Shown here: positions 3,017 through 61,588 of the stretch, one piece after another | How positions within the stretch are numbered: position 1 is the stretch's first letter | Layout of the letters: every line of letters begins with the position of its first letter | Assembly: GCA_964016885.1 (NCBI GenBank) | Contig: OZ024755.1 | Location: 29,078,001 to 29,142,000, forward strand | DNA from: Eledone cirrhosa | Taxonomy: Eukaryota | Length of the DNA: 64,000 nt | Reading direction: 5' to 3' | Notes under the pieces: model-generated | Databases searched by the model: none | The model's input: only the letters and a program-made list of their open reading frames with translations | What the model was told of the DNA's origin: nothing | Made by a program: the position numbers and the translations under genes

Positions 3017-3181
3017 CGTTATTCCGGGTTGAATCGGAGGTAACCACAGTAAGTAAGGTACTCAATACATTGCAGAGTATAACAGTTTTAATATAGATGA
3101 GATTCTACAGGACTAGATTCCTGATGATTTCTAAAGAATGAAACAGTTCTAGTCCTGTAGAATCTCATCTATATTAAAACT
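3017..3181. mobile_element. PLE-like fold-back insertion, family A, in (TA)n
   Basis: Inverted arms ~3085-3117 / 3149-3181; same family at 57811-58004; (TA)n on both sides. Confidence 0.8.
3115..3165 (+). ncRNA. Type I hammerhead ribozyme (family A)
   Basis: agattc CTGATGA t-ttc-taaa-gaa-t GAAA cag-ttctagtc-ctg TA gaatct; stems I-III pair; GUA site. Confidence 0.85.
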
Positions 3182-3273
3182 TATATATATATATATATAA
3201 GTGAAAAGCACTTATGCATATTTAAAGATTATATCTTTAATACAACAGAATCAAGTGGATATTAATTTTGCTA

Positions 3274-3316
3274 AATACTACCGGTTTCGATTGATATATC
3301 AATCTTATCAAATATT
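3274..3316 (-). ncRNA. Degenerate minimal hammerhead motif
   Basis: aatat TTGATAA gattga-tata-tcaatc GAAA ccgg TA gtatt; two core substitutions; palindromic ACCGGT stem III. Confidence 0.6.
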
Positions 3317-3469
3317 AAAATGTGTATTCTCATATTCTGTGAGTTGTTAGAACACATGCTATGTATAATAGATAATGTTTCAGAAGATGCTGAGAATGGC
3401 TCTCAACATTTCTTGGAACAGAAGCTGACAAATAAGGAACTATACAGATCACTACCACCAGTCTCAAAA

Positions 3470-3720
3470 AGAGTAGCCTGCTGACGAATGAAACTGGCTG
3501 GGAAGTGGATCCGTCATCCAGAAGAGACAGCATCACAACTTGTGCTCTGGAAACTGGCGGTCGGACGAAGAAGCGTGGGAAGACAGGCCGTCTCATTCAT
3601 TGATACCCTGCTGAGAGATGCCAACATTGATAACATCGATGAACTGAGAAATGTCATGTTCGACCGAGACGATTGGAGAAGGCGTGCTGAATCTTTGCGG
3701 GTGTAAACTCGGCCGACAGA
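3470..3720 (+). pseudogene. RTE-clade LINE RT C-terminus / 3' end
   Basis: MKLAGKWIRHPEETASQLVLWK...GRRSVGRQAVSFIDTL...MFDRDDWRRR, typical RTE C-terminal motif. Confidence 0.8.
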
Positions 3721-6326
3721 AGTTTTGTTTCACATGGTTTAACGTGCTTAGTTTTTACAATGTAGAGTTGTGTGGCATAGTCAATGTGATGTGTGAGTTT
3801 CTCGATAATTGTATGATTCGTTTTGTATTATACATATACTTTTACTGTATATATTTCGTTTTGCTGGCTAGTCTAATTAAATACGATGTCTATATTAATT
3901 TAATATCTTGAATATTTTTAATTGGATGACACGAGCTGGACCAAAATATTTCCTCTGATTATTGATTGTTACAGCTTCCATTGTAAATGAATCTCTGTAC
4001 AGAGCTGGAGTGTAATTACTAGACTTATATAAAACCCTGAGTGGACAGATTATGAGTTTAATATCAGTCTGCAATAAAGCTTTTAATTCAGCACTTTTAA
4101 ATGTCATATGTTAACGTTGTAACCAGAGAAACATTCATACTAAAATATGCATATATTTTTTTTCTCTTGCTTGTGTCTGTTATATAAGTTATTTCATCAC
4201 CATAACAAGTTATACAACTTACACTTTTCCTTAAGCATCTGTATCACAACTAAAACCCGTTACAAATTATTCCTATATATCCGTAACATTTATGCTCCAG
4301 TTGACCAAACATCTACTTTCATAATAAAACTACATCAATTCGCAACTTCCTTCCTCAAATAGAAACGAATTCTTTCGCAAGATATAGCTTCGCACGAGTA
4401 AAAACTACCGAAAAACTGGTTCCAGAAGCTACATCACGCATGAAATATTACTGTTTTTCACCAATAGAAGGGTGGAACTTTACGAATGCCAGTGGAGGAG
4501 ATACAAGAGCATAACAATATGGTAGGTGGTTACGGAACTGGGTAATCTGATGGATATCCATTTCAATAAATTCATATATATGTTACTCGTATACTATTTT
4601 GTTCTTAAGGATTAAATCATTTTTATCAGAATATTTAGCGATCTCTCCAGAGAAGTTTCCAATTCGAATTCTGTCTCTAGATGAGAATTTTTCCATTTAT
4701 ACTTTACAACTTAACAAGCTGGTCCACACAATAGGACAATATTTATGTGTAGGCAAAAGTATGACTTCAATGTAATATCCAGACTAATTGGCAAATATTT
4801 GCAAGAATTAATTGCTTATCAATTGAAAAAGTTCTGATTCCATTTCCAATCTCGTTTAAATATACTGCATATGTTGCAGCTGTTCTAGTTAATTACTTGC
4901 TGCATTCGTATCTCCTTCCCTCTCATGTTACTATTTATCGTACGGATTTCTGTACCAAAACACCATTCCACAAAAATCAGGTATCTAAAATATCTACTTC
5001 CCTGTAATTTCCCCCCCACATTTCAATGAGCGAAATCATGTCATAGTGTATATTTCATTCGGCTAACAGAGCTAAGATTAATCTCGCTCAGCATTTCTAT
5101 AATTAGGGAACATCGACTAAAACTTCAGTGTGACTAAATCTCTGTGACTAATTATTTTTAGACCCATGGTTTAACAGAAGCACATGCACTTTAAATTTGT
5201 TTAACAAGGAACATCAGCATGAGACATCGGATCATATCTCTCGTACTTCTAATAATATATCAAAAGGAAATGCATACACATGCGAAATTTTAATCTGAAC
5301 TCTATACACTTTGATAGATCTGAAAACTCTTCAAGCGTAAAAAGCAGTTCTTATTTTTCTTTGGAAAAAAATGTAAGAGTTTACGTTGACTTAATTAATA
5401 CTTCCACACACAGGGATATATCCTCACATGTTGCTGTTATCCACATGTATAATCCGTTTGGAGAAACGTAGCATGCAGTATCTACTACTTTGAAGCCTCG
5501 AGATATCAGGTGTTAAAAGAAAACATAAATAAATCAAATACTTAATTACTCGTGATTTTTCAGAGAAAACCTGTAGATATTTAAATGTATGCGGATAATT
5601 TCGTTACATCGTTACAAATATAACCAACAGTATGAATTTAAAAAGAAAAAATCATCAAAATGAATTACAGTATCGTGTAGAATGTTATTTACTGATCTAT
5701 CTATATAATGTTAACCTTAGACATAAGATACTTATTATTTACCGATGCAGTGGAAAGCCTGTGACAAAATATTGAAATAAACGATATTTTAAGTGTTTAT
5801 ATATATTTAGCTTCGTTTTTTTTTTTATCAAACTGTAGCGTTCTTTAAAATCATTACATTAATTGAGATAGGTATGCTAGAAATACAGAAATAAAATAAA
5901 CAGAATGACTGGTTGTCACCATAGTAATAATATATTACTTCCAATATTTCGAATTTTACATCTATTGTCAAGGGAAATCTGTAGGAGAAACCTCGAAGAA
6001 ATCGGAGATTGTCTTTCCTGAACGCTGTTAACTTTTACCTGCTATTGATCCAGGGTGTAAACACCTAGGATTTATTTGTTGTCTGTACAGATGTGAGGGC
6101 ATATATAAGAACGTATGTGTGGGTAACCATGTATATGGTGTATGTGTTTATGTGTAAATGTATTCGTAGGATTGTAAATATTCAAATGTGAGTAAATATC
6201 TAAGTACACATGTATGTATAAAATATTGCGCCGACACTCAGGAGTGTCACCTGTGTATGATTGAATCATGATACATCAGCCACTGTGATTTGTTTCTGTC
6301 CATTCTATTATTAACTGGAGACTCGC

Positions 6327-58998: not shown

Positions 58999-59699
58999 TA
59001 TATAAAGATATCTTTTAATGGCTTGTAACTCTTTCATTAATTCTTTTGCTTATATAAATATATATATATATATATATATATATATATATATATATATATA
59101 TATATATATATATATGTTTATATGTATATATGTTTATATATGTATATATGTATATATATATATATATATATATATATATATATATATATATATATATATA
59201 TATATATATATATGAATTCAAATGGAGTTAAATACTTCTACGATTTTAAGGTGGTATTACTAGCTTTCACCTATCATTTATAGACTCTATATTTCGCTAG
59301 GTAGTTCGACATTAGATGAGATATATCACTAATTATTTCCTGACAGGGATTGGTATTTTTATTTTGAGATAGTTTCGTCATACAGTGTTAGTATTCATAG
59401 AATTAACGGGATTTCATTTAACGCCTACCAAGGCCCTGGTTAATAAGTACAGTATAGTAGAATGTTGTGACTTTTGTTATTTCGATAAGACATTTACAGC
59501 GTAGATAAGATTACATAGGTTCGTAGAAAATTGGACACCAGCCAAGTCTTTCAGTTGGAAGAACTAAATTTCTCTAGATTCTGTCACTGGTAATTTGCTG
59601 CATATGGTCCATTGATTGTCGCATCATTCCACTGATGATCTACAATAATGGTTCTGTATAACTAATAATGCTTTTGCTTGAAGTGGAATCAGAAACAAT

Positions 59700-59830
59700 C
59701 CCACTTACATTAAAAAGACCTACCCATTCGGATTATATACTGTGATTTATACGCCATTATGACGTCAGGATAGCTACCATATTTTCTCTCAATTCTTTAG
59801 ATTCCTTCAGAAACAGTTTCAATTTGAAAA
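59700..59830 (+). pseudogene. Possible decayed PLE RT thumb motif
   Basis: KRPTHSDYIL*FIRHY resembles YRKPTH.D.YL.F.S.H; lies just upstream of the family F terminal repeat. Confidence 0.4.
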
Positions 59831-60044
59831 GATATTAATATTTTAATATAAATTATATCAGAATATGCTACTGACATCTGTGTAATATCTACCATAACCG
59901 AATCTCTTCAAATCTCTATAAATATCTGACAGATCAACCAAAAAACTACTGAAATGGTTATCTTGACATATGCTAGGCTATATAAAAATATTTTCTAGTA
60001 TATTTCTCATATAGACGAGACAATATTGTTACACAGCTGAGCAC

Positions 60045-60313
60045 ATCCAAGGAAAACTTCAACCGTTAAGGTATGTTCATTGGCTATGTCAACATTTATA
60101 AAACGCACTTTGTATTTTATCTGATGAAAGCGTACCAAAGTTTTTGGTACTCTTGAAATATATATAATAGAATAAATATGGTTTAATAAATATAGTTTCC
60201 ATTTATTTAATATCATTGAATATTATACTCCAGAAAACCTGTCGACTGCTCTGAATCAGTTATAAACATTTATATCTCTTGAATTACCAACAAATTGAAT
60301 ATCCCTTCTGCTT
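60045..60313 (+). mobile_element. Family F terminal repeat in colinear form with HHR (60114-60170) and full tail
   Basis: CTGATGA at 60121, GAAA at 60155, tail ending cccttctgctt-(AT)n. Confidence 0.85.
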
Positions 60314-61393
60314 ATATATATATAGTTCAAGGATACAAAAAAAACAGAGGTACAAAAAGTCTCTTGGTTTCGCACTTTATATGGAAAAGAGGAAAGAAAG
60401 TTCGAAGAGTCGGACGTTAGCCATTCTTCAGGTTTACAAAATGTACAGGTGTACAAAGATTGCTTATTGAGTAACATTTAGAGCCCGTGAAAGTGAAGGG
60501 TTTAGCTTAAGATAATCGAGTTTCATGTCGATATATATCTGATAAACTTAGTGAAAATGATACAGAAACCTGATTCAAAACGCAATTGAATTTTCTAGGC
60601 TATTGAATTTCCTGCGTGTTTTGCAAATAGAAACGTGTAGGTCATGTTCGAATATTGGATACCTGACACTGATTTGATATAAGCGATTAGTTACAGGTGC
60701 GTAAGGGAGCATTGGAGCTACAATAATGGTAAAAATGTATCACTTTATAGAAGACTAAATGTGTAGATGAAATGAAATTATTTTAAACAGGGATTACCAG
60801 ACAACCGGAGATTTCGTACCTCTATATAATAGATATGTAAAATATATAATGATAACATAAAAATCAATAAAATTAGAAAATCATTAAAAGGTTCTATAAC
60901 AGGAAATGATGCGAAAAACATGTTTTATTCATATTATTATAAGGAACAGTTTTTTTGTTGTTTTTTTTTCAATATAGACTTAATGGGAGATTTCCATTAA
61001 ATTTTATGGTAATGAACTGCGCAGAAACTCTACTAGAATAAATAAATAAATAAGATATATAATTATATAAATACAGTTTTGAATTATTGTTTATTTATAT
61101 ACACATTTAATTAAGTGGGCACAATTATTCGTATAGGGAAATATACACTCGTGCGGTAAATAATTCATTGTTCAAAGGTGGCATGTTCTAAGAGTTAATG
61201 GATGTATGATGTTTGAATTAAATCAACTCTGCAGATTCTATACAATATTACTAGTTTTCTTTCCCATACAGATATAATTTTCCTTTGTTTTCAGATTGGA
61301 TACTCACAGGCAACACACACAAACACATGCACACGCACACAAACATATATATATATATATATATATATATATATATATATATATATATATATA

Positions 61394-61588
61394 TAGGAAA
61401 GGAGTCAGGACCCCGATGGCTGAGCTCCGGCCGTTTCGACAGCTAGATTCGAACTGATTTCGGATCTATCTGTCAGAGCTCAGCCGTCGGGGTCCTGACT
61501 ATTTTCGTATTACCCACTCTACTACCCTAAGTATCGAGTACTCTGGTGCGTTATGGTCCATCTGGTATCTTACCACACCCCCTTCGTT
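61394..61588. mobile_element. Family B fold-back insertion (diverged)
   Basis: Same two termini as the other B copies; (TA)n on both sides. Confidence 0.85.

Follow-up and report, generated by a model that had tools for sequence, protein, structure and literature searches.

The published layout of Penelope-like retroelements (PLEs) combines a head-to-head inverted pLTR, a palindromic junction and a one-sided tail (PMC3846280, PMC8557442), and PLE insertions carry an inverted 5'-truncated copy, a tail at one end and a bias towards (TA)n (PMC8557442). How the inverted repeats and tails form has been named as an open question (PMC8557442). The PLE protein is predicted to be a dimer. In vitro, the protein of PAc (a Poseidon PLE from Anolis) cuts AT-rich DNA on both strands and extends both; two reverse-transcription start sites bound the PAc tail, and no homology between primer and RNA was found at the start sites (PMC11167929). 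We analyzed a 64,000-nt stretch of DNA (the window) that holds 19 inserts of this architecture. These resemble the endonuclease-positive PLEs (Penelope/Poseidon, Neptune, Hydra, Naiad; PMC3846280, PMC8557442) in having an inverted 5'-truncated head-to-head copy, a palindrome at the junction, a tail at one end, targeting of (TA)n (Hydra and Naiad; a microsatellite bias in Neptune) and a pLTR hammerhead (all but Naiad). The sequence-only reading of this DNA had named the inverted, truncated pLTR as the published PLE feature, which is correct, although the whole head-to-head palindromic layout is also already in print. The architecture is known, and what we add is mechanistic detail: short and tailed ends, joining to TA at both ends, and tight centres.

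We re-examined 16 sites proposed by the sequence-only reading as inverted duplications or inversions with both 3' ends outward, and searched the window for overlooked inserts (Table 1). All 16 are indeed two-armed inserts with outward 3' ends: 11 hairpins (inverted duplications in which 30 or more bases pair; paired length 31-177 bp), one weakly paired site (22375) and four inversions without any shared arm sequence (24049, 39253, 41461 and 55321), which are true inversions when mapped on collinear family copies. Each of the 11 hairpins outscored the best of 30 shuffles, and the weakly paired site was marginal (score 39 versus 36 for the best shuffle; 14 bp paired plus a 12-bp inner stem). Three further two-armed inserts (23816-23984, 38811-39088 and 51906-52276) brought the total to 19; some of the earlier coordinates (27252, 41756) mark the inner short end and not the insert edge. 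The arms are 5'-truncated 3' ends from several repeat families (A, B, C, D, D' and E). Unlike published PLEs, the inserts are 50-500 nt long, hold no ORF and occur about every 3.4 kb (about one per 3-3.4 kb); their tails measure 58-95 nt (putatively up to 145 nt) versus the published 30-40 bp, and a quarter of the 16 sites are inversions without a shared arm. A census by hand gave 14 hairpins (roughly 1 per 4.6 kb) among about 36 insertions in the window, and 19 two-armed inserts versus 17 arms without a recognised partner, so that calling hairpins the default product was an overstatement. Two stretches that could be read as mixed-family two-armed inserts, 23173-23727 (where arms of families C and D lie side by side) and 58213-59057, were counted as single arms because stacked independent insertions explain them equally well.

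Table 1. Two-armed inserts, the collinear reference copy and PLE relics in the window. Paired bases are given as matches/length; earlier position, coordinate in the sequence-only reading.
Feature	Positions	Earlier position	Strand	Details
Family B insert	3017..3181	3017		Tailed arm 3017-3117 (-), short arm 3118-3181 (+) with hammerhead; 34/34 paired, tail 67 nt
Hairpin insert	7853..8057	7853		57/65, 12-nt loop; left arm (-) with hammerhead-like motif (by eye) and 63 extra nt
Hairpin insert	17261..17489	17255		31/31, 22-nt loop with AATAAA on +; 145-nt right extension, putative tail
Family A insert	22376..22533	22375		Tailed arm (-) with internal deletion, short arm (+); 14+12 bp, tail 80 nt
Perfect hairpin	23816..23984	unlisted		84/84, 1-nt loop
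Family A inversion without hairpin	24048..24298	24049		Short arm (-) ~185 nt, variant hammerhead (by eye); tail-only arm 24236-24298 (+)
Hairpin	27120..27623	27252		Hairpin 27258-27623, 168/177, 3-nt loop; left 138 nt to next TA run, putative tail
Hairpin insert	30352..30796	30352		123/133, 113-nt spacer; hammerhead in both arms; 64 extra nt left
Hairpin	38811..39088	unlisted		Hairpin 38899-39088, 82/85, 20-nt loop; 88 extra nt left
Family D' inversion without hairpin	39254..39440	39253		Tail-only arm 39254-39278 (-), short arm 39275-39440 (+)
Family D 50-nt inversion without hairpin	41462..41511	41461		Tail-end arm (-) joined to short arm (+), 2-nt microhomology
Hairpin	41645..41925	41756		Hairpin 41756-41924, 77/77, 15-nt loop; 111 extra nt left, putative tail
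Family A insert	42416..42617	42416		Tailed arm (-), short arm (+); 54/55, 11-nt loop, tail 81 nt
Older inverted pair, no family assigned	51906..52276	unlisted		Pair 51906-52226, 94/108, 99-nt spacer; TA on right side only
Family D' inversion without hairpin	55322..55539	55321		Short arm 55322-55495 (-) with hammerhead; tail-only arm 55506-55539 (+)
Family E hairpin insert	55643..55867	55641		60/65, 95-nt spacer; left arm with hammerhead-like motif and AATAAA
Family C hairpin	57250..57719	57249		155/160, 149-nt spacer; same end site for both arms, exception to short plus long
Family B insert	57811..58004	57811		Short arm (-) joined to (TAGA)n, tailed arm (+); 50/50, 18-nt loop
Family A insert	61396..61587	61394		Short arm (-), tailed arm (+); 43/48, 5-nt loop, tail 81 nt
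Single-armed collinear family D' copy (reference)	60045..60312		+	Hammerhead 60121-60166, short end near 60218, tail to 60312
Decayed PLE relic, Neptune-like	34392..35188		-	RT thumb, Cys linker, GIY-YIG start; no sequence link to fold-back families
Second decayed PLE endonuclease-region fragment	16549..16806		-	

The inserts are likely stubs of PLEs, as they share a hammerhead motif, the head-to-head inverted 5'-truncated copy (19 inserts), a one-sided tail and the (TA)n bias with endonuclease-positive members of this group. A motif scan of the window found 8 hammerheads, whereas 20 Markov shuffles averaged 0.45, and all 8 have (TA)5 22-146 nt away on their 3' side, against a background of 28% within 250 nt. 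A Type I (minimal) hammerhead is predicted by the scan in families B, D and D' and at 30352, as a variant in C and by eye in A, and no such motif was recognised at 17255, 41756 or 23816. The 3'-outward orientation was read from a hammerhead that the scan detected, in the arm itself or elsewhere in its family, at 8 sites, from a hammerhead seen by eye at 5, from AATAAA 45-47 nt before the end at 2, and at 27252 from half a motif seen by eye. RNA folding of the hammerhead regions gave weak signals (z -0.3 to -2.2), which were left out of the support. Opposite-strand pairs of minimal hammerheads from truncated PLEs, 100-700 bp apart as at 30352, have been described in PMC4209133, which, in the part drawn on here, is a motif census without analysis of ends or junctions. 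Searching the window by tblastn with PLE-type proteins detected no RT/endonuclease ORF joined to a fold-back family; it returned only the relics at 34392-35188, which was recognised via homologues and has a Cys-rich linker ahead of its GIY-YIG motif, and at 16549-16806, both unconnected to these families. A Pfam search of four ORF pieces of the window gave no match. An Rfam search gave 135 matches in the window, none of them to a hammerhead family and none at its family's gathering score; many were sub-threshold matches to miRNA models and reflect the hairpins only. Assignment to the Naiad clade, which has no canonical hammerhead and an N-terminal endonuclease, was rejected for most families here, which have hammerheads, but may still apply to those at 17255, 41756 and 23816. 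The TA flanks, and the equal ends and long inverted termini of 57249, would fit TA-targeting elements with terminal inverted repeats, either MITE-like DNA transposons or fold-back elements. We consider this highly improbable, because in place of the fixed length, equal termini and constant interior of such elements, centres and lengths vary in every family copy, ends are unequal, single arms exist and the arms contain hammerhead motifs.

The two ends of an insert are not equivalent. Each family with a collinear reference has two fixed end positions 58-95 nt apart, this distance being the tail length, and 9 of the 10 inserts that can be placed on such a reference have one short and one tailed end (p=0.011; A 4/4, B 2/2, D 1/1, D' 2/2, C 0/1). 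Both end positions are also used in X1 contigs, where family D' runs into (TA)n at its short end in 44+36 contigs and at its long end in 79; RAD read counts, with read starts and ends clustering at fixed, restriction-site-like places, were excluded from the short:long ratio. The (TA)n flanks noted earlier are indeed the rule, with (TA)3 or longer at both ends in 15 of the 19 two-armed inserts and at one end or more in all 19, and among the short-end contexts listed 7/16 share 2-6 letters with the TA flank. The arms end in unique pyrimidine-rich sequence that runs into TA, and poly(A) is absent at the inserts. Empty alleles were not seen in the reads, and a target-site duplication would be masked because of the TA repeats. 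L1 twin priming, as summarised in PMC10191854 and 10.1101/2024.12.14.628481 (Ostertag and Kazazian 2001), is similar in that the second target end primes a second cDNA and the inverted segment lies head-to-head. The inserts here differ from that summary in having no poly(A) tail, a fixed family site for the second primer and arms that often overlap into hairpins. In L1 twin priming the arms are not known to overlap often. A LINE twin-priming inversion, with its poly(A) or simple-repeat 3' tail, was rejected as an assignment on account of the unique pyrimidine-rich ends. That two single-armed insertions of opposite orientation entered the same TA tract and the DNA between them was lost is suggested by TA tracts that have been hit repeatedly, several of which bear an element end on either side, and by tails-in joints across TA runs in the reads. 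Nevertheless, such an origin is very unlikely, as the TA tract is absent from the centre of all 19 inserts, every insert with a reference has two arms of one family, and short ends are paired with long ones in 9 of 10.

The inversion centre differs between copies of one family, confirming within single families what had been proposed across the stretch. Of the 14 hairpins, 9 have a centre no more than 22 nt from symmetry, versus 3.7 expected under independent truncation (p=0.0004); centres are tighter than independent truncation predicts, and joining was therefore likely coupled. A Spearman value from this analysis was set aside, since it sets a minimum against a maximum. Loops are only 1-5 nt at 23816, 27252 and 61394. 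At 57249, comparison by eye with 31045 suggests that each arm has its own private differences, with no sign of two RNA templates. In raw RAD reads, 9 of the 13 family D' opposite-strand joints listed occur in all three individuals, as does joint 60113/60302, which is of the short arm plus tail-only type and has 4 letters that fit both sides. Most opposite-strand read joints cannot be oriented; only two were scored as tails-out junctions and three as tails-in. The identical arms of four of the 16 sites (3017, 17255, 41756 and 57811) and of 23816, like the absence of the window's own junctions among the listed read joints, would fit chimeras formed at TA runs during assembly or amplification. 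Chimeras are unlikely, however, because inversion joints recur in raw reads of three individuals, and with arms that differ by 2-12% in 7 of the 11 listed hairpins and ends at family-fixed sites we give this origin hardly any weight.

We propose that the inserts are probably heavily 5'-truncated integration products of several (TA)n-targeting PLE families, with reverse transcription primed from both cut ends. An element protein would cut both strands inside a TA tract, one DNA end would prime at the short site and the other at the end of the tail, and both cDNAs would stop within about 20-300 nt. A tailed cDNA that stops inside the tail would give a plain inversion, and one that passes the short site a hairpin. 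The cDNA ends would likely be joined by template switch or end joining, either at 0-5 nt of microhomology or through a short templated insert. That tight centres are in excess suggests that the stops or the join are coupled, for example through a shared RNA or a switch at a nearby inverted microhomology. The pairing of a short with a long end is likely a trace of priming on both sides of the cut, and the fold-back products are likely dead-on-arrival copies without function of their own. The earlier idea that both ends of a cut TA site are primed and the two short cDNAs joined thus gains from the PLE-type 3' ends, from four inserts whose arms are not copies of each other, and from the two-strand cutting and extension in vitro (PMC11167929); it has to be changed in that the ends are not equivalent and independent truncation fails for the tight centres.

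Alternatively, a tail-primed cDNA could fold back, copy itself and be resolved at its short site into the other target end, through either the endonuclease or TA microhomology, and non-overlapping inversions would then be later one-sided deletions of hairpins. Self-priming with endonuclease resolution of the tail has been proposed for PLEs (PMC3846280, PMC8557442), and snap-back synthesis fits the tight centres better than two free cDNAs do, as well as the 1-5 nt loops and the loop that appears by eye to be part of the longer arm at 17255 and 38899. However, 4 of the 16 listed inserts and a joint in three individuals have non-overlapping arms, and at 3017 the short arm extends 30 nt further upstream than the tailed arm, so that neither contains the other. 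In all four non-overlapping inserts the lost part would have to come from the tailed arm. Self-copying of one cDNA could give such inserts only with a later deletion, and we regard snap-back as an unlikely, though credible, origin. Besides the centres and loops, several observations count against priming of two cDNAs: the two equal ends of 57249, the lack in the window of a fold-back family tied to an RT/endonuclease ORF, tails longer than those published, the lack of an empty allele, and the match of short ends to the TA flank, where PMC11167929 saw no primer-RNA homology. In a further difference from PAc, joined two-armed products were not shown there, and many short ends here lie on TA-like letters.

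A genome with very many 50-500 nt stubs is a natural data set for separating two-primer from snap-back models, which make countable predictions about the end used by each arm and the arm that owns the loop. The stubs can pass for MITEs or miRNA hairpins, and any transcripts of them would serve as strong substrates for ADAR or for siRNA production. They had also been proposed as a major source of palindromes; this is true of the window once (TA)n is set aside, with 76% of the non-microsatellite near-perfect inverted pairing, but (TA)n itself gives more (50-bp windows: stubs 1.3%, (TA)n 3.5%, all else 0.4%). More speculatively, PLE integration in this lineage might be obligately two-ended, with strands assigned to the short and the tailed start and stopping together, abortive stubs (~1 hairpin/4.6 kb) being the main genomic source of non-microsatellite perfect dsRNA and perhaps seeding or lengthening (TA)n tracts. 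We think this extension rather improbable; if it were true and the host is an octopod, it would account for two features reported for octopus (PMC5625713), an unusually high dsRNA potential and ADAR hyper-editing.

In the window, 30 of 43 long TA blocks adjoin such an element end, and an additional arm (55585-55620) faces the insert at 55643..55867 across (TA)11.

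The tails-out, two-armed inserts of the window are real and are an instance of the known insertion architecture of Penelope-like retroelements (PLEs), at unusual density. We read one by one the 16 sites listed in the sequence-only reading, ran a self-BLAST of the window after masking simple repeats, scored every 40 to 1,500 nt stretch between TA runs against 30 shuffles, and aligned left arms to right arms. The inverted duplications claimed were found at 11 of these sites, pairing 31 to 177 bases around a loop or spacer of 3 to 149 nt. The centre differs between copies of one family, as claimed. 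The insert at 22375 has 14 paired bases and a 12-base inner stem. The claimed inversions were likewise recovered at 24049, 39253, 41461 and 55321, where two segments of one element, mapped on collinear family copies, lie on opposite strands and the arms share nothing with each other. Three hairpins were missing from the list (Table). TA flanks, also claimed, were present at both ends in 15 of the 19 two-armed inserts and at one end or more in all 19; none of the 19 has a TA tract at its centre. Stacking of independent insertions is a weak explanation for such inserts. Junctions show 2 to 5 shared letters, or short inserts like the adjacent sequence. Separately, two stretches between TA runs have a minus arm on the left and a plus arm on the right that seem to come from different families (Table), and are either mixed-template or stacked insertions.

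Of six sequencing runs (three contig sets from one sample and three RAD runs from other samples), four were aligned at 82% likeness to 59960-60360, the region around a single-armed collinear copy of arm family D'. This family is very abundant, with 6805 contigs and 27,000 to 35,000 reads per RAD run. Upstream of the hammerhead region its depth dropped sharply, a pattern that either 5' truncation or divergence among subfamilies would produce. In the loose ends listed, (TA)n followed the short end in at least 44 and at least 36 X1 contigs and the long end in at least 79; for the single-armed copy, an X1 contig confirmed the left junction. Opposite-strand joints filled at least 13 rows. Among those listed, 60048/60156 and 60113/60302 (mate row 60117/60298) are tails-out by geometry, the latter joining a short arm to an arm that stops within the tail, like 39253 and 55321; in three more (60204/60214, 60204/60216 and 60214/60324) the tails face inward with a TA run between them, and the orientation of the remainder is indeterminable. 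None of the joint rows listed corresponds to a junction of the window itself, so its individual loci stand without read confirmation. Because 9 of the 13 joints listed stand in all three RAD individuals and the arms of seven hairpins diverge by 2-12%, it is unlikely that the fold-backs are assembly or amplification chimeras.

Each of families A, B, C, D and D' has two end positions. In 9 of the 10 inserts assignable by a reference, the short end terminates one arm and its partner continues through a 58-95 nt tail (p=0.011 against independent choice); the exception, 57249, has equal ends. Nine more inserts, lacking a reference, carry up to 145 nt of extra sequence on one side, which may be tail or flank. 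Two to six letters are common to the short-end context and the TA flank in 7 of 16 listed cases, and the short end of 57811 meets a (TAGA)n tract, 9 nt sooner than in its sister copy. Centres were tested on 14 hairpins, excluding 22375 and the four non-overlapping inserts and with arm lengths of 55641, 61394 and 27252 hand-set from the arm alignment. Arm ends lay at most 22 nt apart in 9 of the 14, against 3.7 under random arm re-pairing (p=0.0004), and in 7 of 11 when only listed sites were counted (p=0.005); they lay at most 5 nt apart in three of the 14 (p=0.04). Loops vary in the arm to which they belong: the short one at 3017 and in all four plain inversions, apparently the longer one at 17255 and 38899.

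Where neither arm contains the other, two templated primings are needed. This, and the match between the pairing of short and long ends and the two start sites, with extension on both strands, described for a PLE in vitro in the available part of PMC11167929, leads us to favour, with moderate confidence, a mechanism in which two sites would be primed and both products then joined in a coupled step. The proposal that both ends of a cut site are primed is supported as to priming; the centres (9 of 14 against 3.7) suggest that the join is likely coupled. Snap-back of a self-priming cDNA followed by later deletions is a serious rival that we consider less likely. A self-priming model is proposed in the accessible portion of PMC3846280, where head-to-head is the commonest layout. 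Two-site priming and snap-back may both operate. Insert anatomy makes this open question of PLE mechanism countable.

A strict scan for type I hammerheads returned 8 motifs, where a Markov shuffle gives 0.45 on average, and all 8 have (TA)5 within 22-146 nt on the 3' side. Looser scans brought in families C and D (5 canonical cores against 0.1, 7 cores of all kinds against 1.5); the motifs of family A and 7853 are by-eye readings. AATAAA lies 45-47 nt ahead of the end in four unrelated arms. MITE-like transposons are a weak alternative. Rfam gave no match in the window at gathering level. Two decayed PLE coding fragments (RT-associated domains in 88 homologues; a weak GIY-YIG match in one of three full-length homologues scanned) are not linked to the fold-back families, and the assignment to PLEs therefore depends on terminal structure rather than on an ORF. 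One minus-strand hammerhead has a U3-A8 core variant, described in the part of PMC4209133 available.

Excerpts of PMC3846280 also describe inverted pLTRs (PLE terminal repeats), a one-sided tail and palindromes at the inverted junction; those of PMC8557442 extend the architecture to all clades, with (TA)n targeting, and those of PMC4209133 report pairs of hammerheads on opposite strands that derive from truncated PLEs. For twin priming, the sources are citations in two L1 papers; three papers found for Penelope with twin priming do not, by title and abstract opening, concern PLE integration. An Octopus vulgaris repeat annotation, in its available text, counts 31 PLE families as recently active, and neither "palindrom" nor "hairpin" occurs in its main text there. 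The literature searched does not state the short and long pairing or the insert density; either may be given in supplements or in subscription papers on how Penelope is built.

Hairpins proved not to be the default product: a hand census of the window gave 19 two-armed inserts (14 hairpins of at least 30 bp) and 17 arms for which no partner was recognised, some of which may hide tail-only partners, and about 40% of insertions are hairpins. TA runs of at least 30 nt occur in 43 TA blocks, 30 of which adjoin the recognised 3' end of an element; such tracts may be targets only or may also grow longer on insertion. By the PMC5625713 measure in an ungapped form (available part; 50-bp windows, near-perfect inverted partner within 2 kb), 5.1% of windows were paired in this one 64-kb window, without scaling to the genome (TA runs 3.5%, hairpin inserts 1.3%, other 0.4%); the octopus genome-wide value there is 0.44%, its source repeat unnamed.

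The window, AT-rich animal DNA, is rich in microsatellites, (TA)n among them, and in one abundant SINE-like repeat, which may resemble an octopus SINE. Pfam gave no match for the decayed reading frames, presumably transposase-like. The 72-nt inverted copy, whose counterpart lies 1 kb upstream, resembles a templated insertion at the second end.

Features of the window outside the listed sites
Feature	Position	Strand	Remarks
Hairpin	23816-23984
Hairpin	38899-39088
Hairpin	51906-52226
Left minus, right plus arm	23173-23727
Left minus, right plus arm	58213-59057
Tails-in palindrome	55572-55680		two opposed family E ends around a (TA)11 centre
72-nt inverted copy	43558-43634 / 44646-44722		100% identical; 44646-44722 abuts 5' end of family D copy 44349-44644, then runs into (TA)n
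Variant hammerhead	3279-3311	-	79 nt from TA run common to it and the 3017 insert
SINE-like repeat, ~20 copies	12182-62209		partial tandem copies 13365-14041; inverted neighbours 32697-33696
Decayed reading frames	10437-11746	-	226 aa piece at 11066-11746
606-bp repeat	9330-9935, 44932-45537, 39599-40013		two copies 96% alike, same ends, TA runs on or near both sides
Tandem array	21311-21939		51-bp unit, ~12 copies; related sequence 47965-48196, other strand
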